Assembly: GCA_038324555.1 (NCBI GenBank)
Contig: JBBQIC010000001.1
Coordinates: forward strand, 1-49,778
DNA length: 49,778 nucleotides
Reading direction: 5' to 3'
Source of the DNA: Chloroflexia bacterium
Lineage (GTDB): Bacteria; Chloroflexota; Chloroflexia; QHBQ01; JADMIH01
Below the pieces are notes generated by a model that ran no database searches, was not told where the DNA came from, and saw nothing but the letters and a program-made list of their open reading frames with translations. Positions 2,960 to 49,778 of the stretch are shown here, piece by piece (within the stretch, counting starts at the first letter, position 1; each line of letters begins with the position of its first letter). The translations under genes and the position numbers were made by a program.

Positions 2960-4258
2960 GTGCTGCCTGAACCACGCCTCGCCCGGCAGATCATCGAAAC
3001 ACTCGGCCAATCGGGCACACCTATGTCAAAGGGCGTCAGCTACTACAACGTGGGTAACGAGTCGCTGCTCAACGCCATTGACACGCACTACCTGGGGTCA
3101 TACCTGGCGGACGGCGGGGCGGCCTTCAAACTGGTGGTTGGAGACTACGGCAGTGGCAAGTCGCACTTCCTGTATTGCGTGCGCGACCGCGCATGGCAAC
3201 GCGATTTCGCCGTGAGCAAGGTGGACCTCAGCCCCAAGGAAAGCCCCTACGACGATCAGCGCCGGGTATACTCGGCGGTGGCGTCCTCGCTTGTGTGGCA
3301 CGAATTGGGTAGCGGGAGCGAAGATGAGCAGGGGCTGTCGCGCTTCCTCGAAGGCACGCTGAGGCGGTTGGTCGCGCCGCACGGCTTCGATTTCCAGGAC
3401 GAGGGCGCGCAAGACGTTCCCGAAGTGCGCGCTTTCCTGCATACTCTGGAAACCACGCCCGTTGACAGCCTGAGTTTCCATAGGGCCATACAGGGCTACT
3501 TCAACGCGCTACTTCGGGGGCAGGAGCGGCGCGTCGAAACGCTAGAACGTTGGTTGCACGGCGAAGAAGTGACGCCGGAAGATATGCGCGACCTGCGCTC
3601 TATTGGTGTGACCGAGAAGATCAACAAGAACAACGCCTTCAAGATGCTGCGCTCGCTGTGCCAGGCCGTGCGCGCAATGGGCTATACAGGATTGGCCTTG
3701 CTGTTCGATGAAGGCGACCGCATGATGAGCATCGGCGGCAAAGCCGAGAAGACGGCCACCGACAACCTGCGCGAAGTGATAGACCGATGCCGGGAGGACT
3801 TACCGGGCGCGCTCTTCATGTACGCGGTCCCGCCCGATTTCCTGCATACGGTAGTGCCCAAGTATCCGGCGCTACAGCAGCGCGTCCAGGCTGCCGACTA
3901 CTTCTCGCGCGTCAACCCTTTCAGCCCACAGATAGACCTCGACCATCTCGATCTGCCCGACGGCCAACTGCTGATTGAGATCGGCAACCGCCTCCTGCCC
4001 ATCTTCGAGACGGCCTACGATGTGAGGCTTGATCACGAGAAGCAGGCCGCGAACATCGCAACTTTGTCCGGAGCCGCGTGCAATTCGTATCTGGCGATCA
4101 GCCATCGCCGGTTGTTCGTGAAGGCTATCGTCACCGAATGGTATCGCCAGAAAGAGACCGGCGAAAGTGTCATTTCGCCAGAGCACGCCGACGCCCTTAT
4201 CAAAGGGCAAAGTGAAGCCCTGAACCGCCAGGCGGACGAAGAGCAGGGGGCATATTAG
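2960..4258 (+). CDS. P-loop ATPase, BrxD/DUF2791-like
   Basis: GTG start after GAAGGAGAAGAGGAG. Walker A GDYGSGKSHF (3140-3169) and Walker B ALLFDEGD. The N-terminal 'IIETLGQSGTP' segment before the P-loop is typical of the DUF2791 architecture. Family assignment is from motif memory, not from a search. Confidence 0.65.
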   Translation: MLPEPRLARQIIETLGQSGTPMSKGVSYYNVGNESLLNAIDTHYLGSYLADGGAAFKLVVGDYGSGKSHFLYCVRDRAWQRDFAVSKVDLSPKESPYDDQRRVYSAVASSLVWHELGSGSEDEQGLSRFLEGTLRRLVAPHGFDFQDEGAQDVPEVRAFLHTLETTPVDSLSFHRAIQGYFNALLRGQERRVETLERWLHGEEVTPEDMRDLRSIGVTEKINKNNAFKMLRSLCQAVRAMGYTGLALLFDEGDRMMSIGGKAEKTATDNLREVIDRCREDLPGALFMYAVPPDFLHTVVPKYPALQQRVQAADYFSRVNPFSPQIDLDHLDLPDGQLLIEIGNRLLPIFETAYDVRLDHEKQAANIATLSGAACNSYLAISHRRLFVKAIVTEWYRQKETGESVISPEHADALIKGQSEALNRQADEEQGAY

Positions 4259-4262
4259 GGGA

Positions 4263-4334
4263 GTTAGAACGTTGGAACGTTGGAACCTGCCAACGTTCTA
4301 ACGTTCTAACGTTCTAGCGTTCTAACGTTCTAAC
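4263..4334. repeat. gttggaac/gttctaac-family hairpin element (8-nt units)
   Basis: gttagaacgttggaacgttggaac-ctg-ccaacgttctaacgttctaacgttctagcgttctaacgttctaac. Fills the gap between the two ATPase genes. Confidence 0.9.
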
Positions 4335-4336
4335 AC

Positions 4337-5761
4337 ATGGAGCAGTCACCCAAAGTCAATCACTCGCAGTTTGGCCCCGGAACGCTTCTTAAGACGTTCA
4401 TGGGCGGTTTTGAGTGGGAAGTGCAGTTTGATTCGGGGCGGCGATTCCGCCTGCCCGCAAAAGAGTTCGACGGAGTACAAGGGGTGGCGGGACCAGGGGT
4501 TGGGGACTGGGGATCAGAAGTTAGGGACCGGTCCCCAATTTTGCAGCGCGCGGCGACGTTGGACGTTGACCAGTTTCGGGCGCAGCAAACGCTGGAGAGC
4601 CTTCGCGTTGGCATCGTGCCTGTGCAGGACGCCGAAACGCTCACTATCGGTCTGGAAGCCGAGCGGGTGACGCTGGACAGGGCGTTGGACCGTAGTAGAG
4701 AACGGGGCGGCGACGTGCTGGCGATCATCGGGGATTATGGCTTCGGCAAGAGCCACTTTATCGAACTGACGGCGCGGCGCGGGTTGCGCGAGAACTTCAT
4801 CGTGGCAGGCGCAAGCCTCGACCTGGTGGAAACGCCGCCCGGCAAGGCGCACAAGATTTACGAGGCGCTGGTGACGTCGCTGCGTTATCCCGACACCGAG
4901 CAGCGCGGACTGGCTCCCCTGCTGAATAAGGCGCTGGAAAACCCCTCGGTGATCGCCCGCTTCGTAGAGTTGTGCCCCCGCGAACCGAGGAGTTGCCCAC
5001 TCGCGTCGGCGTTGCTGGCGCTCCAGGATTGTCCCAGCCAATTAGCGTTCGACCAGATCGTGCAGTGGTTGAGCGGGCAGGCCAAACCGCAGGCTGAGAT
5101 GAAAAGCTGCCTTAAGAAGCCGCCTCCCCTCTATGTCACACGCGAAACAGCGCGGCAGTATACCTACCTGCTTACAGGCATTAGCACGCTGGCGACCATG
5201 CTGGGATATAGCGGGCTAGTCGTGCTGATTGACGAGTCCGAGCACTATTCGCTGCTGCGCACTTCACAGCGCGAGCGGGCCGACTCGTTCTTCAAGGCGA
5301 TGATAGTTAGCGCGTTGGGGCTGAACAACGCTCGCATAGACGCCCGCGAAATCCCCGACAACTCTCGCGCCGAGTACCCTGTGAGCTACGCCTCCGAAGC
5401 CCACATGCTATTCCTCTTTGCTCTCACGGAGAGCGCGGACCGGATGCCGGTGGGCACATGGCTCGCGCCCTCGCATATAGTCCGATTGGACGACCGTTTT
5501 ATCGAGAAGGACATCCGCGAGTTCTTCGAGACGCTGCTGCGCTACCATGCTCTGGCCTACAGCTACTCACCCACGCCCGAAGGCCATGGGGAGACCGTCC
5601 CCAGCGCAACGGAGATGCTCTCTCGCGCTCTTGGTCAGCACCGTGTGAACCTGCGCCAGCTGATCCGCACCGCAGTGACGGTGTGCGACCTGCTCTACCT
5701 CTACCCCGACTATCTGCCCGCCAAGCTGCTGGAAGAATTGAAGCGTGGGTTGAGGGTTTAA
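4337..5761 (+). CDS. P-loop ATPase, BrxD/DUF2791-like paralog with N-terminal Tudor/SH3-like domain
   Basis: Walker A GDYGFGKSHF (4731-4760), Walker B VVLIDESE, and 'ESLRVGIVPVQDAETLTIGLE' ahead of the P-loop. The N-terminus HSQFGPGTLLKTF..WEVQFDSGRRFRLPAKEF resembles the PcrA/UvrD C-terminal Tudor-like (DUF3553-type) motif. Confidence 0.65.
   Translation: MEQSPKVNHSQFGPGTLLKTFMGGFEWEVQFDSGRRFRLPAKEFDGVQGVAGPGVGDWGSEVRDRSPILQRAATLDVDQFRAQQTLESLRVGIVPVQDAETLTIGLEAERVTLDRALDRSRERGGDVLAIIGDYGFGKSHFIELTARRGLRENFIVAGASLDLVETPPGKAHKIYEALVTSLRYPDTEQRGLAPLLNKALENPSVIARFVELCPREPRSCPLASALLALQDCPSQLAFDQIVQWLSGQAKPQAEMKSCLKKPPPLYVTRETARQYTYLLTGISTLATMLGYSGLVVLIDESEHYSLLRTSQRERADSFFKAMIVSALGLNNARIDAREIPDNSRAEYPVSYASEAHMLFLFALTESADRMPVGTWLAPSHIVRLDDRFIEKDIREFFETLLRYHALAYSYSPTPEGHGETVPSATEMLSRALGQHRVNLRQLIRTAVTVCDLLYLYPDYLPAKLLEELKRGLRV
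4489..4538. repeat. cagggat/ggggatc-family element inserted in frame in the second ATPase
   Basis: gggaccaggggttggggactggggatcag...gggaccggtcccc. ttggggac (4500-4507) pairs with gtccccaa (4531-4538). Encodes GPGVGDWGSEVRDRSP. Confidence 0.65.
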
Positions 5762-7242: not shown

Positions 7243-9654
7243 ATGGATGAGGGCATGGAACCTGATCGCCTCGAAAATGGTCACGCGCTAAAATCAGCCC
7301 TGCCGCGCACATGGGGCGCGTTCTTTGGCCGCCACGGCAATTTCACTCCCGCCCAGCTTGCCGCTATTCCGCCGTTGCTGGCGGGCGAAAACGTGCTTCT
7401 GTGCGCTCCTACCGCCTCCGGCAAAACAGAGGCCGCGCTTGCTCCGCTAATTGAGCGCCACCTGTCGCTGTCAGGCAGGACCGAGTATACACCAGCCGAT
7501 GGACGATGGACGATGGACGATGGACGCACCCAATCTCCAGCGTCGTCAACCGTCCATCGTCCATCGTCCATCGTCCATCGTCCATCATCCCTAACGATCC
7601 TCTACCTTCTGCCCACGCGGGCGCTGATCAGCGACTTGTGCGCCCGCCTTGCCGCGCCACTGGAAAGGCTGCGCGTCTCTTTTGCGGTCAAAACGCACGA
7701 CTTCACCACCTTCGACCCCAAGCGGCCCGCCGATCTGCTGCTGACCACGCCGGAGTCGCTCGATGCGCTGCTTGCGAGTCAGGCGAAGATACTGGCGGGC
7801 GTGCGGGCGGTGGTGATAGACGAATTGCACGTTTTCGACGGCACGCCTCGTGGCGATCAACTTCGGGTTGTGCTGAACAGGCTGCGACAAGTGCGCGCCC
7901 ACGCAGCCCGCGTAGGGGACGCGACTGACGATAGCCTGCAACTCGCCGCGCTTTCAGCGACCCTCACGCAACCCGAAGCCGCCGCAACGCGCTTCCTGGC
8001 TTCGGCCAAAGTGGTGCGAGCGTCGGGCCATCGCACGATACAGGCCGAGCAGATTGCACTCGCTGTGCCGGACGACGGACGATGGACGATGGACGATAGT
8101 GAAGAATCGTCCATTGTCCATCGTCCATCGTCCATAACGACCGATGCTCTGCTCAACTACCTGAGCGATTTCCGCAAGCGCGGTTGGCGCAAGGCGCTGG
8201 CCTTCTGCAACACCCGCAGCGAAGTAGAGACCTATGCCGCAGCGGTGCGGGCAGCAGGATCGCCTTTCGGCGACGCCGTGTACGCGCACTACTCTAACCT
8301 GGCGTGGGAGAGACGGCGGGAAATCGAGCAGCAGTTCGCACAGGCGCAAGCAGCCATCTGCTTCGCCAGTAGCACGCTCGAACTGGGGATAGACATCGGC
8401 AACATTGACGTGGCTCTACTCATCGGCGCGCCGGGAAGTATCGAGGCATTCGTACAGAGGACCGGAAGGGCCGGTCGCCGTCAGCCGGTAGCGAGGGTGG
8501 CCTGCTTTTATCGCACACCCCTTGAACGTATCACCTTCGACGCGCTAATCAGGGCTGAAAGTCCAGGGTCCAAGGTTCAAGGTCCAAAGTCCAACATCAA
8601 TGGGATTGGACCTTCAATCCTGGACCCTGGACCCTGGACCGCCGGAGTTGAGCAGGCGACATCAGAGAGGGACGCAGCTACATCGTCGCACTTTCACCCA
8701 TCGGTCGCCATACAGCAGATATTCAGCTTGCTCAAGCAGAGTCCGACAGGCGCGGTACGGCTCAACCCTTTAGCCGGGTTGTTTGCCGGGATGCTCTCTG
8801 CCGACGACCTTCGGGCGATAATGGGCACGTTGCAGGCTTTGGGGTATTTACAGAGCGGGCGGGCCGGGGAATGGCGAGCGGGGGAGCAGCTCAACCAGCT
8901 TGCCGACCTCCAATCGGCTGAATACACCCCTCTCAGCCTGCACAGCAATATTCCAACGTCAGGCTCGAAACCGATCAAAATCCGGGACCGGTACAGCCAG
9001 CGCGTTGTGGCAAGTGTCGACCGGCAGTGGTTTGACCGCGACCAACTTACGTTGGAAGGGCGGCCTATGAGTATAGAGTGGTACGACGGCGAGTCGCTGT
9101 GGGTCTCTGCCCAGCGCGGTCACGACACCGAGGACGTGCCGGCACGCCTGCGCTATCTCTCGACGCGACAGATATTGAGCTACGACCTTGCACGGCGCTT
9201 CCCGCCTGTTCTTGGCCTGCCGCCCGCGACAGCGCCGTTGGTCCAGCAAGATAACGGCTTGGTATGGTTTCACTGGTTAGGGGACGTTTATGGGCGGGCG
9301 GCCCTAGACCTGGTAAAGTACACGATGCCCGCAATGGAAACACCGGAGCCTGGGCTGTGCTTACTGCTGCAAGACGTGGGTGACGCACGAGGCGGGAGCG
9401 GGCTTCGCGCCGCCATCCTGTCCTGGACGCACGAGCAGGTCGTACACTACCTCCACGACAAGTATCGCCGCTATGAACCGATGCTGGCGCTTGGAGCCTA
9501 TCACCACCTGCTGCCTGTGGAACTGCGCCGCCGGGCCGTAGTGGAGCAGTTTGACGTGCCGCGTTTCTTGCAAGCCGTAGAAAATCTCAATATTGGACAT
9601 GCTGGTGAAGCCCCCACCGAGGAGCTAGGGGATTTTATAAATGGAATAGGGTGA
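7243..9654 (+). CDS. Lhr-like DEAD/DEAH-box SF2 helicase with long C-terminal extension
   Basis: Motif I CAPTASGKTEAA (about 7405-7428), motif II DELH (7819-7830), ALSATL, and motif VI VQRTGRAGRR. Carries three in-frame hairpin-element insertions. The stop codon lies inside an agggtgagggaat element. Confidence 0.85.
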   Translation: MDEGMEPDRLENGHALKSALPRTWGAFFGRHGNFTPAQLAAIPPLLAGENVLLCAPTASGKTEAALAPLIERHLSLSGRTEYTPADGRWTMDDGRTQSPASSTVHRPSSIVHRPSSLTILYLLPTRALISDLCARLAAPLERLRVSFAVKTHDFTTFDPKRPADLLLTTPESLDALLASQAKILAGVRAVVIDELHVFDGTPRGDQLRVVLNRLRQVRAHAARVGDATDDSLQLAALSATLTQPEAAATRFLASAKVVRASGHRTIQAEQIALAVPDDGRWTMDDSEESSIVHRPSSITTDALLNYLSDFRKRGWRKALAFCNTRSEVETYAAAVRAAGSPFGDAVYAHYSNLAWERRREIEQQFAQAQAAICFASSTLELGIDIGNIDVALLIGAPGSIEAFVQRTGRAGRRQPVARVACFYRTPLERITFDALIRAESPGSKVQGPKSNINGIGPSILDPGPWTAGVEQATSERDAATSSHFHPSVAIQQIFSLLKQSPTGAVRLNPLAGLFAGMLSADDLRAIMGTLQALGYLQSGRAGEWRAGEQLNQLADLQSAEYTPLSLHSNIPTSGSKPIKIRDRYSQRVVASVDRQWFDRDQLTLEGRPMSIEWYDGESLWVSAQRGHDTEDVPARLRYLSTRQILSYDLARRFPPVLGLPPATAPLVQQDNGLVWFHWLGDVYGRAALDLVKYTMPAMETPEPGLCLLLQDVGDARGGSGLRAAILSWTHEQVVHYLHDKYRRYEPMLALGAYHHLLPVELRRRAVVEQFDVPRFLQAVENLNIGHAGEAPTEELGDFINGIG
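7498..7586. repeat. gatggac-family hairpin, in frame in the helicase
   Basis: (gatggac) x4, 24-nt loop, (cgtccat) x5. Encodes [10 protein letters not shown]...[15 protein letters not shown]. Confidence 0.9.
8071..8135. repeat. gatggac-family hairpin, in frame in the helicase
   Basis: gacgacggacgatggacgatggacgat-agtgaagaat-cgtccattgtccatcgtccatcgtccat. Confidence 0.9.
8561..8640. repeat. gtccaaa/ggtccag-family hairpin, in frame in the helicase
   Basis: gtccagggtccaaggttcaaggtccaaagtccaac...tggaccttcaatcctggaccctggaccctggacc. Confidence 0.85.
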
Positions 9655-11289: not shown

Positions 11290-11443
11290 GACGATGGACG
11301 ATGGACGATGGACGATGGACGATGGACGATGGACGATGGACGATGGACGATGGACGATGGACGATGGACGATGGACGATGGACGATGGACGATGGACGAT
11401 GGACGATGATGAACGGTCGTCCATCGTCCATCGTCCATCGTCA
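11290..11443. repeat. Expanded gatggac array (~17 units) with a short complementary arm
   Basis: A heptamer tandem runs 11291-11408. The loop is atgaacggt. The reverse arm cgtccatcgtccatcgtccatcgtc is only ~3.5 units. Confidence 0.95.
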
Positions 11444-12316
11444 TCATCCAAACCGTCCCGTAATGAAGTCCTCGGTCTCCTTCTGGGCGGGCGTGAGGAA
11501 CATCTGCATGGTAGGGCCAACCTCTTTAATGCGGCCTGCCAGGAAAAAGGCGCAGTATTCGGAGACGCGGGCCGCTTGCTGAAGGTTGTGGGTAACTATC
11601 ACTGTAGTATAGTTCTTCTTCAACTCGACTATCAGGTCCTCTATTTTGCCTGTGGAGATGGGGTCGAGGGCAGAAGCAGGCTCGTCCATCAGCAACACTT
11701 CGGGGCGCAGAGCTATAGCGCGGGCGATGCACAGGCGCTGCTGCTGCCCGCCGGAGAGCGCGAACGCCGACTTCTTGAGCTTATCCTTCACGTCGTCCCA
11801 AAGCGCGGCTTCCCGCAGGCTCTTTTCCACGCGGTCGGATATTTCGCTCCTGGCATACTTGTGGACGTGAAGAGCATAGGCTACGTTGTCGTAAATAGAC
11901 TTGGGAAATGGGTTGGCCCTCTGGAAGACCATACCTACCCTAAGGCGTAACCTGACCACATCAACGTCGCTTCCAAGCAATTCCTGGGCGTCCAGCCTTA
12001 TGCTCCCCTCGGCGCGGGCGGATGGCACAATGTCGTTCATGCGGTTGATGCAGCGCAGAAAGGTGGTCTTGCCGGAACCCGAAGGCCCGATGAGCGCCGT
12101 AACTTGCTTCTCGCGTATGTCCAGGTTGATGCCGTAAAGCGCCTGCTTCGCGCCGTAGTAAAAATCGAGGTTGCTGGCTGTCACTTTCGGTTTGGCATCA
12201 GGGTTAGCCTCAAATACAGGCCGCAACCCGGTCAGCAGAGCCGGTTTTGGTTGGTCCATTAAGCTGCTTCCTGGCCCCCTTCCGTTGGGGGCTACTGTCT
12301 TTAGGTAGTTGCCCAT
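11444..12316 (-). CDS. pstB: Phosphate ABC transporter ATP-binding protein PstB (copy 1)
   Basis: [47 protein letters not shown]. The true start may be ATG 12259 (MDQPKP, AGGAAG 7 nt upstream), giving 271 aa. Confidence 0.85.
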
Positions 12317-12363
12317 AGTTTCTCGTCCCTTATCCTTTATCCCTTATCCTATTATCTTCAGGA

Positions 12364-12416
12364 CTTACGCAAAATAAACATCGTCTATCGTCCGTCGTCT
12401 ATCGTCTCTGCGTAAG
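12364..12416. repeat. cttacgca...tgcgtaag stem enclosing atcgtct heptamer tandem
   Basis: 8-bp inverted repeats at 12364-12371 and 12409-12416 flank atcgtct atcgtcc gtcgtct atcgtct. Confidence 0.6.
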
Positions 12417-12424
12417 CCCTTAGC

Positions 12425-18368: not shown

Positions 18369-20273
18369 TCAGCCGCTATTCGCAGTGCCTCTACCTTCGG
18401 AGGGCAGAGTGAAGAAGAAAGTCGTGCCCCGATTCAGTTGGCTTTCGACCCAGATATGCCCGCCGTGAGCCTGCACTATATGCTTGGCGATGGCAAGGCC
18501 CAGACCCGTCCCGCTCTCCCGATTGGATGCGCGCAGGGTCGAAGCTTCTCCCTCCACATCGCCACGAGCGCCAGTGCGTCCCTTGTCTACTTTGTAGAAT
18601 CGCTCGAATATGCGAGGCAGATCGTCGGGCGGGATGCCGATCCCCGTATCCTCTACCGCGATAACAATGCCTCCCTTTTGAGACGCCGCTTGAAGGGTTA
18701 TCTGACCACCCGGAGGGGTAAACTTGATGGCGTTATGGACGAGGTTGACCAGCGCCTGCTCGACCCGTTCGGCGTCAGCATAAGCGTATAGCGCGGGGTC
18801 GGTAGTCCGCGCGCTGAGGTTGAGATTGGCGCGCTCGGCCTGGGCCTTCAACCTCCGTACCGTGCTATTGAGCAGTTCTACGACCTGAACGGGCCTCTTG
18901 TTCAATTGGACCTTGCCCGACTCGATCCTTGATAACTCGAGCAGTTCCCGCACCAGTTGAGTGAGGCCGTCTAGCTCTACGTCTATCGTCCGCAAGAAAC
19001 CGCGCGCGACCTTCGGGTCGTCCTTCACGGCGGTTTCAAGGGTCTCGACGAGCAGCTTGATTGAAGCTAACGGGGTGCGCAGTTCATGCCCTATATTAGT
19101 TACGAAGTCGCGGCGCACGCGCTCTAACCGTCGCAGTTCGGTCACGTCCTGGAGCACCACGAGGCCCTTGGGCCGCCCCCCGTCAGCTCCTGGCACCAGA
19201 GTAACGACGGCAGCAATCGTATGCCCGGCTATCTCGGTTTCCAACTTCTGAGGTTCGCGCCGAGCCAGCGCCGCGCTCAACGCCCGGTGCAGATCGTGGT
19301 TGTGGCTCACTTCGATAAGCGAGCGTTCGGCGGCTTGCTCAGGAGCAGAACCTAGTAGCAACGCCGCAGCCGGATTGATGCCCTGGATGCGCCCCTGGGC
19401 ATCGGTGAGCACTACGCCGTCCTGCATATTGGCAAGGACCGCAGCCATCTGATTGCGCTCGGTGGTCAGTTGTAGGATAGTGGCGCTCAACTGGTCGGCC
19501 ATAGAGTTGAATTCCCGACTTAGTTCCCCTATTTCTCCACTGGTAACAAGAGTTGAACGCATAGACAGGTTGCCCCGCCCCAGGCTTTGGGCCGCGTGGC
19601 GCAACGTTGATAGCGGCCCAACTATAGAGCGGGCAAGGAGAGTGCTAAGTAGCACGGCAGGAATGCTGACAAGCAGCACCGCTATGATAAGGTCGCCCCA
19701 CAGGGCGTCGCGGGCGCTCTCGACCGAAGTCATAGGATAAGCGACGCGGGCCACGCCAATGACAGACGATGGACGGCGGACGATGGACGATGGTTGAGGC
19801 GTGCTACCGTCCATCGTCGGCTGTCCATCGTCCTGTAAATCAGTGACCGCCATCGCAACATATAACAAGCGCCGGTGTACCGTCGCACTGAGACGTATAT
19901 CGCTGCCCGGTTGGTCCTTTCTTGCCAGGGCTTCGCGCACTTCGGGACGGTCTTTATGGTTCTCCATGAGGCTGGGGTCTTGCTCCGAGTCACCTACCAC
20001 CGTGCCGTCCGGCCTGATAAATGTGACCCTGGTCCCGAAAACGCCTGATAGCTGGTGGGCGAGAGAATTGGTAGCCGTTATGGGGGCGTCACCGGCAAAA
20101 AGCGGTGCGGCGCTGTACGCAGAGGCACGTACCTCGTCGGCCAGGCGCGCCCGCAAGGCTTCTTCCTCACGGCGCTCGAACTCGCCCCCCAGCAACAGAG
20201 CCAGCACGCCCCCCGTGATCAGCGCCAGCAGCGCATAACTCAGGGCGATGCGGGTCCAGGTGGTTGAGAGCAT
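18369..20273 (-). CDS. phoR: Sensor histidine kinase, PhoR-like (TM-sensor-HAMP-PAS-HisKA-HATPase)
   Basis: H-box IGHELRTPLASI, N-box LVHNAIKFT, G-boxes EDTGIGI / GTGLGLAIAKHIV. Adjacent to an OmpR-type regulator and the pst genes. Has an in-frame gatggac-element insertion in the sensor domain. Confidence 0.8.
   Translation of the reverse strand: MLSTTWTRIALSYALLALITGGVLALLLGGEFERREEEALRARLADEVRASAYSAAPLFAGDAPITATNSLAHQLSGVFGTRVTFIRPDGTVVGDSEQDPSLMENHKDRPEVREALARKDQPGSDIRLSATVHRRLLYVAMAVTDLQDDGQPTMDGSTPQPSSIVRRPSSVIGVARVAYPMTSVESARDALWGDLIIAVLLVSIPAVLLSTLLARSIVGPLSTLRHAAQSLGRGNLSMRSTLVTSGEIGELSREFNSMADQLSATILQLTTERNQMAAVLANMQDGVVLTDAQGRIQGINPAAALLLGSAPEQAAERSLIEVSHNHDLHRALSAALARREPQKLETEIAGHTIAAVVTLVPGADGGRPKGLVVLQDVTELRRLERVRRDFVTNIGHELRTPLASIKLLVETLETAVKDDPKVARGFLRTIDVELDGLTQLVRELLELSRIESGKVQLNKRPVQVVELLNSTVRRLKAQAERANLNLSARTTDPALYAYADAERVEQALVNLVHNAIKFTPPGGQITLQAASQKGGIVIAVEDTGIGIPPDDLPRIFERFYKVDKGRTGARGDVEGEASTLRASNRESGTGLGLAIAKHIVQAHGGHIWVESQLNRGTTFFFTLPSEGRGTANSG
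19765..19833. repeat. gatggac-family hairpin, in frame in phoR
   Basis: gacgatggacggcggacgatggacgatgg-ttgaggcgtgctac-cgtccatcgtcggctgtccatcgtcc. Encodes DGQPTMDGSTPQPSSIVRRPSS. Confidence 0.85.
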
Positions 20274-21160: not shown

Positions 21161-21195
21161 GTGAGGATTCTGGCTGCAATGCTGTCTGTGAGAGA

Positions 21196-21327
21196 GCAGG
21201 GTGGATGCAAAGTCGGTGGAGCGTGCCCCTTGACGATAGACGATAGACGATAGACGATTGAGCAGGCATCGTCTATCGTCTATCGTCTATCGTCTATCGT
21301 CGGATAAGCGACTTTGCACCAGCCCTA
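21196..21327. mobile_element. MITE-like element: ~18-bp TIRs around a gatagac hairpin core, flanked by an 11-bp direct duplication
   Basis: Direct repeat tctgtgagaga at 21185-21195 and 21328-21338. Left end gcagggtggatgcaaagtcg. The reverse complement of the right end is tagggctggtgcaaagtcg. The core is (gatagac) x3.5-ttgagcagg-(catcgtct) x4.5. Confidence 0.7.
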
Positions 21328-21346
21328 TCTGTGAGAGATCAATGTC

Positions 21347-21376
21347 TTGACACTGCGCGCTTGCGTGTCCTATAAT
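21347..21376 (+). promoter_or_regulatory. Near-consensus sigma-70 promoter for yceD-rpmF-fabHD (TTGACA-18 nt-TATAAT)
   Basis: ttgaca 21347-21352, tataat 21371-21376. Lies 64 nt upstream of the yceD ATG. Confidence 0.55.
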
Positions 21377-23352: not shown

Positions 23353-23421
23353 GACGATGGACGATGGACGATAGACGTTAGTAAGCCATCGTCCATCGTC
23401 CATCGTCCATCGTCTATCGTC
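23353..23421. repeat. gatggac-family hairpin between fabH and fabD
   Basis: gacgatggacgatggacgatagacg-ttagtaagc-catcgtccatcgtccatcgtccatcgtctatcgtc. Confidence 0.9.
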
Positions 23422-30884: not shown

Positions 30885-30962
30885 CCCGGTGGGTGAATAG
30901 GATGAACCCGTAGGGGCACACGGCCGTGTGCCCCTACGGGTTCACCCTATTCACCCACCGGG
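30885..30962. repeat. 78-bp near-perfect palindrome with gtaggggcacacggccgtgtgcccctac core
   Basis: cccggtgggtgaatagg(a)tgaacccgtaggggcacacgg pairs with ccgtgtgcccctacgggttcaccctattcacccaccggg. Lies between convergent genes. The right arm encodes the anti-sigma C-terminus and stop. Confidence 0.9.
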
Positions 30963-33232: not shown

Positions 33233-33389
33233 TGCGGCCCACCTCCTATAAGTAGAACGGAGGCAAGGCCAGGAGGTTGCAAAAATAGCAGAGTGGATGT
33301 TGGTGGTATCTGGGGTAATTGTACCACACGAGTAGGGTGAGGGAATAGGGTGAGGGTCTATTCAAAGACGAAAATGCAAGCGAAAGACC

Positions 33390-33499
33390 AACCAACTAGA
33401 CCTTGTCATTCTGAGCGAAGCGAAGAATCTGGTCGTCGGGCACTGTGCTGAGGTTTAGAGATTCTTCGCTTCGCTCAGAATGACAAGGTCTAGTTGGTT
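33390..33499. repeat. 41-bp perfect inverted repeat (…gtcattctgagcgaagcgaagaatct)
   Basis: aaccaactagaccttgtcattctgagcgaagcgaagaatct (33390-33430) pairs with its exact reverse complement (33459-33499). The loop is 28 nt. Confidence 0.9.
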
Positions 33500-33535
33500 C
33501 CTCAACCCCAACACCAGCGACTTTGAATTGACCCT

Positions 33536-33598
33536 GGAGTAGGGTGAGGGAGTAGGGATAAAGACTACTCCCTCACCCTATTCCCTCACCCTACTCCC
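33536..33598. repeat. agggtgagggaat-family hairpin
   Basis: ggagtagggtgagggagtaggg-ataaagacta-ctccctcaccctattccctcaccctactccc. The loop and arm are shared with the 9644 copy. A half-copy lies at 33332-33356. Confidence 0.9.
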
Positions 33599-36296: not shown

Positions 36297-36537
36297 GTAG
36301 GGGCGCACGGCCGTCATTGACCCCAACTAATACACTGGTTCGACTCCGCCCGGCGCTCTCCGCGAGCGAATTAGTTGAGGCATGGTCATAATTCGTAGGC
36401 ATGATTGCGGTTGTAGGGGCGCACGGCCGTGCGCCCCTACGGTTGGGCCGCAGATGTATGCTGGTACGTAGCGCGTGTCTGACCATTTATGACCATGCCT
36501 CAATTAGTTGGAGTCAATGACGTCCGTGCACCCCTAC
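36297..36537. mobile_element. MITE-like composite element with 35-bp terminal inverted repeats (32/35 match)
   Basis: Left end gtaggggcgcacggccgtcattgaccccaactaat (36297-36331). The reverse complement of the right end (36503-36537) is gtaggggtgcacggacgtcattgactccaactaat. Inside are a 17-bp inverted repeat ttgaggcatggtcataa (36375-36391 / 36487-36503) and a gtaggggcgcacggccgtgcgcccctac palindrome (about 36413-36440). Confidence 0.65.
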
Positions 36538-38128: not shown

Positions 38129-38193
38129 GACGATGGACGATGGACGATGGACGATGGACGATTGAACGAGCATCGTCTATCGTCCATCGTCTC
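38129..38193. repeat. gatggac-family hairpin upstream of comEC
   Basis: (gacgatg) x~5, loop tgaacgagc, then atcgtctatcgtccatcgtctc. Confidence 0.9.
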
Positions 38194-42174: not shown

Positions 42175-42951
42175 ATGTGTTCGCGCATGATTAACAGCCC
42201 TATGAAGTCTAAGGTCCAGGGTCGAGGGTTAGAACGTTGGACTTTCGACTTTAGACTTCGGACACGCTTCAGGCACGCCATCAAGTGGGGCTACTCGCTG
42301 CGATGGAGGGCGCTGCCGCCGGATTACAACAGGACTTACTGGCTCAAATCCAATGGCTTCGAGATAACAGTTCTGCCGTCGGTCTTCCACCCGAAGTGGC
42401 ACTTTACGAGCGAATTCTTCGCGGAAACGTGCGTATCGCTCATCCCAAGGCACGGTGATTGCAGCGTGTTGGAGATCGGCACGGGCACCGGATTGATAGC
42501 CCTTTCGGCAGCACGGCGCGCAAAGAGGGTCGTGGCAGTTGACATCAACCCAGCAGCCGTGAAGTGCGCCAGGATAAACGCGACCAACAATGGCATGGCA
42601 AGTAAGATTGAAGTATACGAGGGAGATATGTTCGGTCCTGTAACGGATCGCAAATTCGACCTCATCCTGTGCAACCCGCCCTACTTCCGGGGCACACCAC
42701 GCTCCGAGGCAGACCTGGCGTACCTGGCCGGGCCAAACCTGGAGTGGATAAGCCGCATGGCAAGCGAAGCGCACAACTATCTTTCCGATGGCGGTTCTCT
42801 CGCCTGCGTGTTCGGCGATGCAGCCAATGTTCCCGCCCTCGTCGCGCTCATAGAGAAGAAGGGCTGGACGGGCCGCATCATCGCAAAGCGGGCTACCCCG
42901 TTGGAGGAGTTGACAGTTTGGCAATTCAAGGAGGGTGAGGGAATAGGGTGA
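42175..42951 (+). CDS. Class I SAM methyltransferase with NPPY motif (HemK/Mtq2-like small-domain type)
   Basis: VLEIGTGTGLIAL, VVAVDIN, DLILCNPPY. The start is uncertain (in-frame ATGs at 42175, 42187 and 42202). The N-terminal ~30 aa overlap a hairpin element. Confidence 0.8.
   Translation: MCSRMINSPMKSKVQGRGLERWTFDFRLRTRFRHAIKWGYSLRWRALPPDYNRTYWLKSNGFEITVLPSVFHPKWHFTSEFFAETCVSLIPRHGDCSVLEIGTGTGLIALSAARRAKRVVAVDINPAAVKCARINATNNGMASKIEVYEGDMFGPVTDRKFDLILCNPPYFRGTPRSEADLAYLAGPNLEWISRMASEAHNYLSDGGSLACVFGDAANVPALVALIEKKGWTGRIIAKRATPLEELTVWQFKEGEGIG
42204..42259. repeat. Degenerate gtccaaa-family hairpin at the methyltransferase 5' end
   Basis: gaagtctaaggtccagggtcgag...ttggactttcgactttagacttc. 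The arms are imperfect. Confidence 0.6.
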
Positions 42952-43062
42952 GGGAGTAGGGGCACACGGCCGTGCGCCCCTACGGGTGTCCCGTGACGTT
43001 GGGTAGGGGCGCACGGCCGTGTGCCCCTACTCCCTCACCCTATTCCCTCACCCTACTCCCTA
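42931..43062. repeat. Composite palindrome-of-palindromes (agggtgagggaat arms, each carrying a gtaggggc.cacggccgtg.gcccctac palindrome)
   Basis: gagggtgagggaatagggtgagggagtaggggcacacggccgtgcgcccctac, about 20 nt, then gtaggggcgcacggccgtgtgcccctactccctcaccctattccctcaccctactcccta. Confidence 0.9.
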
Positions 43063-48519: not shown

Positions 48520-49778
48520 ATGGACATCCTACTGACGCACGGCTACTTTATAGCCGAAGACCCACACGAACAGAAGATAATGAAGCCGTACCCCACACTT
48601 GGGATACTGTATATCTCCTCGCACCTTAAAGCTAAAGGCTTCAGCGTAGAACTGTACGACACCACTTTCTCCACGAAAGCCGCTTTCCGGGCGTATTTAG
48701 AAGCGAAGCGTCCGCCCATCGTGGGCATCTACACTAATCTGATGACCAAGCTCAACGTTATCCCCATGATCGGGTGGTGCAAATCAGTCGGGGCCAAGGT
48801 CGTGCTGGGCGGACCCGAACCTCCGCACTACGCGGACGAGTTCCTAGACGCAGGGGCCGACGTGGTGGTCATCAGCGAGGGCGAAGAGACGCTGGAAGAG
48901 CTGATCCCTGCCCTACGGGTAGGGGCACACGGCCGTGTGCCCCTACAAGGCGTCAGAGGCATAGTGTTCCGCGACGAAGACGGTAAAACGGTGCGCACGC
49001 CTCCGCGCCCGCTCATAAAGAACCTGGACGCACAGCCCTTCCCCGACCGCGAGGCGATTGATATGGACCGCTACGTAGATACCTGGCGTACAAATCATGG
49101 ACGTGGCTCGGTGTCCCTCATAACGGCGCGCGGCTGTCCTTACACCTGTAAATGGTGCAGCCACTCGGTCTTCGGCAATACCCACAGACGGCGCTCTCCT
49201 GAGAATGTGCTCGCCGAGCTAGAGGAGATTATCGAACGCTACAGCCCCGACCAGCTATGGTACGCCGACGACGTGCTAACTATCCATCGAAGTTGGACCC
49301 TCAACTTCGCCGCGCTGCTAAAAGAGCGGGGCGTCAAGATACCGTTCGAGTGCATTTCGAGGGCCGACCGCCTGGACCCGCAAGTAATAGACGCTCTTGC
49401 GGAGATAGGCTGCGACAAGCTGTGGATAGGCGCGGAGAGCGGCAGCCAGAGGATACTTGACGCGATGAGCAGGCGCACGCAGGCAGAGGACGTGCAAGCC
49501 AAGACGCATATGCTCAGGCGCGCGGGCATCCAAACGGGCATGTTCATCATGCTCGGCTACGAAGGCGAGGAGATACCGGACATCGAGGCCACGGTTGACC
49601 ATCTCAAAAAGGCCGACCCCGACATCTTCCTAACCACAGTCGCCTACCCCATCAAAGGCACCCCCTACTACAACGAAGTCGAGAGCCGCATCATAGAGCA
49701 GACATCCTGGCAGGGGCGCACCGACCGCGACCTCACCGTAGCCGGACGCCACTCCAAACGCTTCTACTCCTTCGCCAC
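48520..49778 (+). CDS. B12-binding-domain radical SAM enzyme (class B), 3' partial
   Basis: Not in the ORF track because it runs off the window. I translated frame 1 from ATG 48520 to the end without finding a stop. Contains MDILLTHGYFIAEDPHEQK..., ITARGCPYTCKWCSH and IGAESGSQRILD. The last complete codon ends at 49776. Confidence 0.8.
   Translation, partial: MDILLTHGYFIAEDPHEQKIMKPYPTLGILYISSHLKAKGFSVELYDTTFSTKAAFRAYLEAKRPPIVGIYTNLMTKLNVIPMIGWCKSVGAKVVLGGPEPPHYADEFLDAGADVVVISEGEETLEELIPALRVGAHGRVPLQGVRGIVFRDEDGKTVRTPPRPLIKNLDAQPFPDREAIDMDRYVDTWRTNHGRGSVSLITARGCPYTCKWCSHSVFGNTHRRRSPENVLAELEEIIERYSPDQLWYADDVLTIHRSWTLNFAALLKERGVKIPFECISRADRLDPQVIDALAEIGCDKLWIGAESGSQRILDAMSRRTQAEDVQAKTHMLRRAGIQTGMFIMLGYEGEEIPDIEATVDHLKKADPDIFLTTVAYPIKGTPYYNEVESRIIEQTSWQGRTDRDLTVAGRHSKRFYSFA
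48919..48946. repeat. Perfect 28-nt palindrome gtaggggcacacgg|ccgtgtgcccctac, in frame in radical SAM 3
   Basis: Read directly from the sequence. Encodes VGAHGRVPL within the B12-binding domain region. Confidence 0.9.

Follow-up and report, generated by a model that had tools for sequence, protein, structure and literature searches.

A probable ISAs1-derived MITE carrying a tandem-heptamer hairpin upstream of the yceD-rpmF-fabH-fabD promoter of a Chloroflexia bacterium

MITEs are known from bacteria, examples being Nezha in cyanobacteria, the Correia elements in Neisseria and RUP in Streptococcus. IS elements of the ISAs1 family have inverted repeats of 14–22 bp that start with CAGGG, together with 10-bp direct repeats (PMC11946415), and ISArsp11, a member of the family on the Arthrobacter plasmid pA58H3, has the left inverted repeat CAGGGCTGATGCAAAGTCG and a 10-bp direct repeat (PMC6305408, Table 3). 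The present work concerns a 49,778-bp stretch of Chloroflexia DNA (the window). We read its segment 21197-21327, with a probability of about 0.9, as a non-autonomous ISAs1-derived MITE that was inserted by transposition and holds a heptamer hairpin as nested cargo in a variable slot.

The 11-mer TCTGTGAGAGA occurs on the + strand at 21185-21195 and again at 21328-21338, and a search of the window that tolerates one mismatch finds no further match, which confirms the direct repeat reported in an earlier note on this DNA. The 132 bp between the two copies start with GCAGGGTGGATGCAAAGTCG and end with CGACTTTGCACCAGCCCTA. The earlier note had taken all of them as the insert, with terminal inverted repeats (TIRs) of about 18 bp that differ by one mismatch and one indel; the imperfect TIRs and the hairpin between them stand, but the consensus of the family described below sets the element at 21197-21327, that is, at 131 bp. 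An extra G (21196) separates the left repeat from the CAGGG end of the element, and the flanking target-site duplication (TSD) is 11 bp when exact or 12 bp with one mismatch. The left TIR, CAGGGTGGATGCAAAGTCG (21197-21215, + strand), and the right TIR (21309-21327), which reads TAGGGCTGGTGCAAAGTCG on the - strand, match each other at 15 of 19 positions ungapped and, when gapped, differ by one mismatch plus indels. Each arm departs at two of 19 positions (17/19 match) from CAGGGCTGATGCAAAGTCG, the consensus of both the family and ISAs1-type ends. CAGGG opens the left end and TAGGG the right end, the latter being a variant seen in six further family members; CAGGGTGGATGC is a variant form of the ISAs1-type end.

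Inside the TIRs lie a left subterminal segment, GTGGAGCGTGCCCCTT (21216-21231, + strand), which in alignments is common to the MITE subfamily of the MAG JBDTQH01 (e.g., L026, GTATGGAGCGTGCCCTCT), and a right subterminal segment, GGATAAG (21302-21308, + strand), which as GCTTAT beside the TIR is common to the end of another member, L008. Between these two segments sits the nested tandem-heptamer hairpin (21232-21301), consisting of about four units of (GACGATA)n at 21232-21258, the loop TGAGCAGGC at 21259-21267 and about five units of (ATCGTCT)n at 21268-21301. The arrays have a period of 7 with 3.9 and 4.9 copies and 100% matches; these copy numbers may be imprecise, because a 1.6-kb Logan contig from the same locus breaks inside the hairpin and every sequence used here is a MAG contig. 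Folded as single-stranded DNA, the stretch gives −48.7 kcal/mol (z = −9.7 against shuffles). The sole ORF overlapping the 131 bp is a 45-aa reading of the repeat itself, and the element contains no transposase gene. A search of the hairpin against Rfam returned just a sub-threshold and spurious match to mir-641 (34.7 bits versus 100).

The YceD-like protein encoded downstream of the element was used to find close relatives. Contig JBBSEP010000227.1 of GCA_038239605.1, a sister Chloroflexia MAG (L002), encodes a YceD orthologue of 89% identity and has the gene order of the window: histidine kinase, response regulator, yceD, rpmF, fabH and fabD. On either flank of the insertion site, the two genomes share about 93% DNA identity. 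At the site itself, the sister genome has a single copy of the 11-mer, with one substitution, and no insert; it reads TCTGTAAGAGA / ...ATGTCTGTAAGAGATTCAATGTCTTGACA... / ...GCAATGATGTCTGTAAGAGATTCAATGTCTTGACA..., with one extra T (AGAGATTCAATG versus AGAGATCAATG). The two BLAST segments that join the window to this contig overlap by exactly the 11 duplicated bases. The empty site that the earlier note had proposed to look for is thus present, and the comparison of the filled with the empty site reveals a real insertion with TSD. Two outgroups (L003 and L004) keep the downstream promoter and are unalignable upstream of its −35 hexamer; because they are too diverged there, the polarity of the event is taken from one sister genome.

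This dependence on a single sister genome leaves room for another history, in which the insertion is old rather than recent in the lineage of the window and the empty site arose by precise excision or by deletion between the 11-bp repeats, perhaps favoured by the palindrome. Palindromes flanked by direct repeats tend to undergo deletion, and the departure of each TIR from the consensus at two of 19 positions hints at some age. However, the two copies of the repeat agree at all 11 positions, whereas the genomes differ by about 7% in the DNA around them, and insertion is commoner than precise loss. We consider an old insertion unlikely, and under either history the element originally arrived by transposition.

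Elements with the same ends are widespread in Chloroflexales. The degenerate end YAGGGYKGRTGCAAAGTCGST, searched for in a set of genomes with one representative for each species, matched at 62 loci. Chloroflexales/Chloroflexia MAGs account for about 57 of these, among them an 'Oscillochloris' MAG (about 19), JBDTQH01 (about 14) and JAOACU01 (about 10). A MAG labelled Acidobacteriota contributes two complete elements, and the remaining three (two in Pantoea, one in Mycobacterium) are apparently chance matches. When oriented on the match, the family elements are about 150–180 bp long, run from CAGGGCTGATGCAAAGTCG to CGACTTTGCATCAGCCCTG and have flanking direct repeats. Besides the pair in the window element, 43 complete TIR pairs were found (56 elements under relaxed matching); an exact 10-bp flanking repeat accompanies 13 of the 43, and a 10-bp repeat with at most one mismatch accompanies 20. 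Over all TIR pairs the TSD ranges from 8 to 12 bp with a mode of 10 bp, so that the 11-bp duplication of the window element (or 12 bp, with one mismatch and the offset G) is at the long end of the family range and not modal. Among copies of the same genome, the mean identity was 86% in one and 91% in the other of two genomes tested. The complete copies in the related MAGs occupy different sites, each with its own duplication. The window's own genome has two family copies within the 50 kb viewed. The other copies with these TIRs that the earlier note had anticipated therefore exist by the dozen, with their own duplications of about 10 bp. A metagenome scan for the junction between TIR and subterminal segment that is specific to the window element (TGCAAAGTCGGT N0-3 GGAGCGTGCC) returned no sibling.

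The two complete MITEs in the MAG labelled Acidobacteriota (L006 5102-5275 and L018 6034-6207) have 10-bp duplications and the same 19-bp end. The occurrence of this end both there and in an IS on an Arthrobacter plasmid reflects either unusually strong conservation of the inverted repeat across phyla, horizontal transfer or mis-binned contigs. In an 'Oscillochloris' MAG (L057 3583-3633), one family MITE lies directly against a heptamer array, (ATAGCCG)4, where the contig ends. Tandem repeats flank one of the 56 elements and 23 of 3000 random positions, indicating that the family has no target preference for tandem-repeat DNA.

The second family copy in the window (33352-33536, + strand) is more diverged, with the TIRs GAGGGTCTATTCAAAGACG and, in reverse complement, CAGGGTCAATTCAAAGTCG, which match at 16 of 19 positions. 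Its core is a different palindromic hairpin, TGTCATTCTGAGCGAAGCGAAGAATC (TGTCATTCTGAGC), which is also found in the MITEs of JBDTQH01. This copy is inserted in the left arm of a hairpin built of 13-mers, (GGAATAGGGTGAG)n, between the flanks GAATAGGGT(G) and GAGTAGGGT(G), and when it is removed in silico together with one flank copy, a perfect 32-bp stem is restored. MITEs and tandem-repeat hairpins are thus distinct entities, either of which can be nested in the other.

The structure of other family members bears on how the heptamer hairpin came to lie between the TIRs. An 83-bp member (L005 3898-3980) consists of the TIRs and subterminal segments only, and 176-bp members of the same genome have a 93-nt palindrome, TGTCATTCTGAAC...GAATGACA, in the middle of the element. 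The TIR and the left subterminal segment (GTGGAGCGTGCCC) of these members recur in the window copy, where the heptamer hairpin takes the place of the palindrome. The coreless scaffold shows that the cores are nested additions, and since the slot is empty or filled by unrelated palindromes in other members, the heptamer hairpin is best regarded as nested cargo. It belongs to the commonest hairpin type of the window, with GACGAT(G/A) units and a 9-nt loop like those of the free-standing hairpins at 23353-23421 and 38129-38192, and is therefore a copy of that repeat family within a MITE.

The earlier note had gone further and linked the heptamer hairpins in general to a cut-and-paste or copy-and-paste mechanism. 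On that account the tandem-heptamer hairpins as a class would be MITEs spread by this transposase, and the present copy would merely be the one with recognisable ends. In its favour, one hairpin is indeed bounded by TIRs of a working type and by a TSD, and the GACGAT(G/A) hairpins share features of both unit and loop, so that they are copies of one another and not independent products of slippage. The generalisation is nevertheless largely refuted within this window. A search with the TIR consensus, allowing up to five mismatches, found just the two MITEs and one weak solitary match, and the flanks of the other 25–30 or so hairpins contain neither inverted nor direct repeats. The sister genome has no counterpart of the hairpin that separates fabH from fabD (23353-23421): there, at about 3158-3170, the two genes are 4 bp apart. 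The junctions of this hairpin have no TIR, no TSD and no inverted or direct repeats. A tandem-heptamer core was found in none of about 55 other family members; the four true members among the six loci from a scan of JGI metagenomes for short elements likewise lack one. The coreless scaffold and the 13-mer hairpin interrupted by a MITE also speak against it. We regard this account as very unlikely; the transposon explains this copy only and not the spread of the many other hairpins of the genome. Tentatively, the hairpins, with units of 7, 8 and 13 nt, might instead form a separate, self-propagating palindromic class in this Chloroflexia lineage, one that inserts without TIRs or TSDs and whose targets include intergenic DNA, genes (entered in frame) and MITE cores. 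If so, insertion into the core of a MITE would give a hairpin an additional means of spread, driven by the transposase.

Further repeats were observed in the window. An 803-aa Lhr-like DEAD/DEAH helicase ORF (7243-9654, + strand) contains three in-frame tandem-heptamer hairpins (7497-7590, 8070-8135 and 8561-8640), which translate as ...DGRWTMDDG...SSIVHRPSS... and similar peptides. Seven orthologues of the helicase (684–744 aa) lack the segments at the first two positions, and two have other insertions at the third; the best orthologue is 65% identical and there is no close sister, so these hairpins were compared at the protein level only. A WalK/PhoR-like histidine kinase ORF (18369-20273, - strand) has an in-frame hairpin of the GACGATG type at 19765-19850, with the peptide ...PSSIVRRPSSVI.... 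The hairpin at 11290-11450 is very asymmetric, with 17 perfect GACGATG copies on one arm and about 4–5 complement copies on the other, which suggests that the arrays expand by slippage after forming. At 12360-12421, the loop of the palindrome GGACTTACGCA...TGCGTAAGCCC contains (ATCGTCT)4, an array that has no complementary arm; this is another case of nested repeats. A third repeat type comprises perfect palindromes with a GTAG head, GTAGGGGC(R)CACGGCCGTG(Y)GCCCCTAC, present in six copies (1637-1654, 30910-30937, 36413-36440, 42956-42983, 43003-43030 and 48919-48946) where 0 are expected; the loop of a 13-mer hairpin (42932-43061) encloses two of them. These palindromes look like REP elements.

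An autonomous partner with the same TIRs, another of the checks proposed in the earlier note, was found in a further Chloroflexia MAG (L030, JBBRDO01). It is an IS of 1367 bp (3211-4577) with perfect 19-bp TIRs CAGGGCTGATGCAAAGTCG and the 10-bp TSD CTGGTAAGCC. Its 423-aa ORF scores 217.9 bits against NF033564, the model of the ISAs1 family transposase (cut-off 70), with further matches to PF13808 and PF01609. L024 has a second, incomplete copy of 81% identity, and tblastn with the partner transposase found zero matches in the window. Plasmid-borne homologues of this transposase reach no more than about 40% identity, and almost all of those listed carry an ISAs1 family annotation. The family ends fall within the 14–22 bp described for ISAs1 and start with CAGGG, and the left inverted repeat of ISArsp11 is identical to the Chloroflexia family consensus. 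Taking together the empty site, the family ends, the partner IS and the published ISAs1 inverted repeats, we conclude that the element is a MITE of an ISAs1-family IS. It is small and without a transposase, has TIRs, a TSD with an empty site and dispersed copies, and ends like those of an autonomous IS; the direct repeat–TIR–core–TIR–direct repeat order that the earlier note had interpreted as a MITE is therefore borne out by the empty site, by family copies with their duplications and by the autonomous IS.

Assignment to an IS4-family MITE (IS231/IS4 type) or to a REP/BIME-type element is highly improbable. Duplications of IS4 and IS231 are 10–12 bp, which the 11-bp repeat would fit as well, and the partner transposase has a weak match to the IS4 model NF033592. 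That match, however, scores 28.3 bits (cut-off 115), far below what was obtained with the ISAs1 model, and the annotation of the plasmid homologues, the CAGGG ends and the identity of the ISArsp11 repeat with the consensus all point to ISAs1. REP/BIME elements, mobilised by RAYT, are short imperfect palindromes with a GTAG head that make no target duplication, whereas the element has a TSD and 19-bp TIRs of the ISAs1 type; the REP-like GTAGGGGC...GCCCCTAC palindromes of this genome also differ from it in sequence. An origin of insert and repeat without any transposase, through filler DNA at a staggered break, replication slippage or chance, has nothing specific in its favour and can be dismissed on the family evidence, as the 11-mer occurs nowhere else in the window and the ends each match, at 17 of 19 positions, a TIR common to dozens of elements with 10-bp duplications and to a transposase-encoding IS.

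For the ISAs1-derived MITE, the family suggests a course of events. A DDE transposase of the ISAs1 type, acting in trans, would recognise the ends of about 19 bp (CAGGG...AAAGTCG) and, as in the ISAs1/DDE family, would make a staggered cut of about 10–11 bp in the target, and repair of the gaps would then yield the flanking duplication of TCTGTGAGAGA. The insertion itself is shown, and its landing site was the short spacer between the response-regulator gene and the conserved promoter of the yceD-rpmF-fabH-fabD cluster. The hairpin was not mobilised by virtue of being a hairpin; it fills the variable central slot of a modular scaffold, and this cargo could have been gained either before or after the copy moved to the site.

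The promoter of the yceD-rpmF-fabH-fabD cluster (21347-21376, + strand) is a sigma-70 consensus promoter, TTGACA-18-TATAAT, that agrees with the consensus at 12 of 12 positions and is kept in the sister genome (about 1155-1184) and in both outgroups (L003 60-89 and L004 798-827). It is conserved nearly base for base in the four genomes, whose YceD proteins are 75–89% identical. The promoter starts 8 nt after the right repeat, so that the MITE ends shortly before the −35 hexamer and leaves both it and the −10 hexamer intact. The earlier note had placed the element in a phoB/yceD divergent promoter region, 9 bp upstream of a near-consensus TTGACA; its position upstream of the promoter holds, but the promoter is a full-consensus one and is 8 nt away, and the upstream gene, which encodes a response regulator of the OmpR/PhoB family, does not reach the cut-off of the PhoB model (221.5 bits versus 296.2). 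A distance of 36 bp separates the insertion site from the first ATG in frame in the response-regulator ORF, whose receiver domain begins only at residue 43–46; this suggests that the real start, and probably also the promoter of the regulator, lies further left. Judged by its position, the insertion interrupts no core promoter element and might have a regulatory effect on the context upstream of the promoter. In the outgroup L003, the DNA just upstream of the promoter holds the heptamer-like CGTCCATCGTCC. Further downstream, the fabD start codon ATG of the sister genome is ACG in the window, where fabD therefore probably starts at a downstream GTG.

In summary, the feature at 21197-21327 is settled as a textbook MITE insertion for which the empty site, the family and the parent IS have been identified. 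As such it is an ordinary mobile element of a well-known kind, and the dense tandem-repeat hairpins of the window, including those translated in the helicase and the histidine kinase, need an explanation of their own apart from the transposon. The family, in turn, is widespread in Chloroflexales and apparently undescribed, with a 19-bp end that is that of an actinobacterial IS. In the accessible portions of the literature naming both ISAs1 and MITE, no ISAs1-derived MITE is described, which makes it probable, within those portions, that the Chloroflexales family is new. A search of the literature for heptanucleotide tandem repeats in Chloroflexi found none.

Two known repeat types resemble the hairpins rather than the transposon. 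Mazel et al., in 1990, reportedly described short tandemly repeated heptanucleotides (STRR) of heterocystous cyanobacteria, with the units CCCCAGT, TTGGTCA and CAACAGT. Like these, the MITE core and the free-standing hairpins of the window are dispersed tandem arrays of 7-nt units, the likeness of the core being one of period only; unlike them, they occur in a Chloroflexia host, have GACGATG, GACGATA and other units, form hairpins from inverted pairs and in some cases lie in frame inside genes. The MITE core was considered as a cyanobacterial STRR and rejected, as it is a heptamer array with neither the units of STRR1-3 nor a cyanobacterial host. The Rickettsia palindromic elements (RPE), which Ogata et al. 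are said to have reported in 2000 as complex palindromes of about 100–150 bp, resemble the in-gene hairpins of the window only, in being palindromic repeats that lie in frame in protein-coding genes and are tolerated as an extra peptide; they differ in having no tandem arrays of short units and no sequence relationship to the hairpins.

The element itself compares most closely with bacterial MITEs and with ISAs1. Like bacterial MITEs, it is small and non-coding, has the TIRs of an autonomous IS, a TSD, many dispersed copies and a palindromic body that folds strongly, and lies, as they often do, in intergenic, promoter-proximal DNA. Nezha, the Correia elements and RUP differ from it in deriving from a parent IS family other than ISAs1. 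The Chloroflexales MITEs have a modular core, which changes from one lineage to another, being absent or consisting of a TGTCATTCTGA... palindrome, G+C-rich palindromes or, as here, a heptamer hairpin. With the ISAs1 elements ISArsp11 (PMC6305408) and Francci3_2330/2941 of Frankia (PMC11946415), the window element shares the CAGGG start, its duplication is close in length to their direct repeat of about 10 bp, and each of its ends differs from the left inverted repeat of ISArsp11, CAGGGCTGATGCAAAGTCG, at two of 19 positions. Unlike these IS elements, it is 131 bp in length, encodes no transposase, is flanked by an 11-bp duplication and carries a tandem-heptamer hairpin at its centre.
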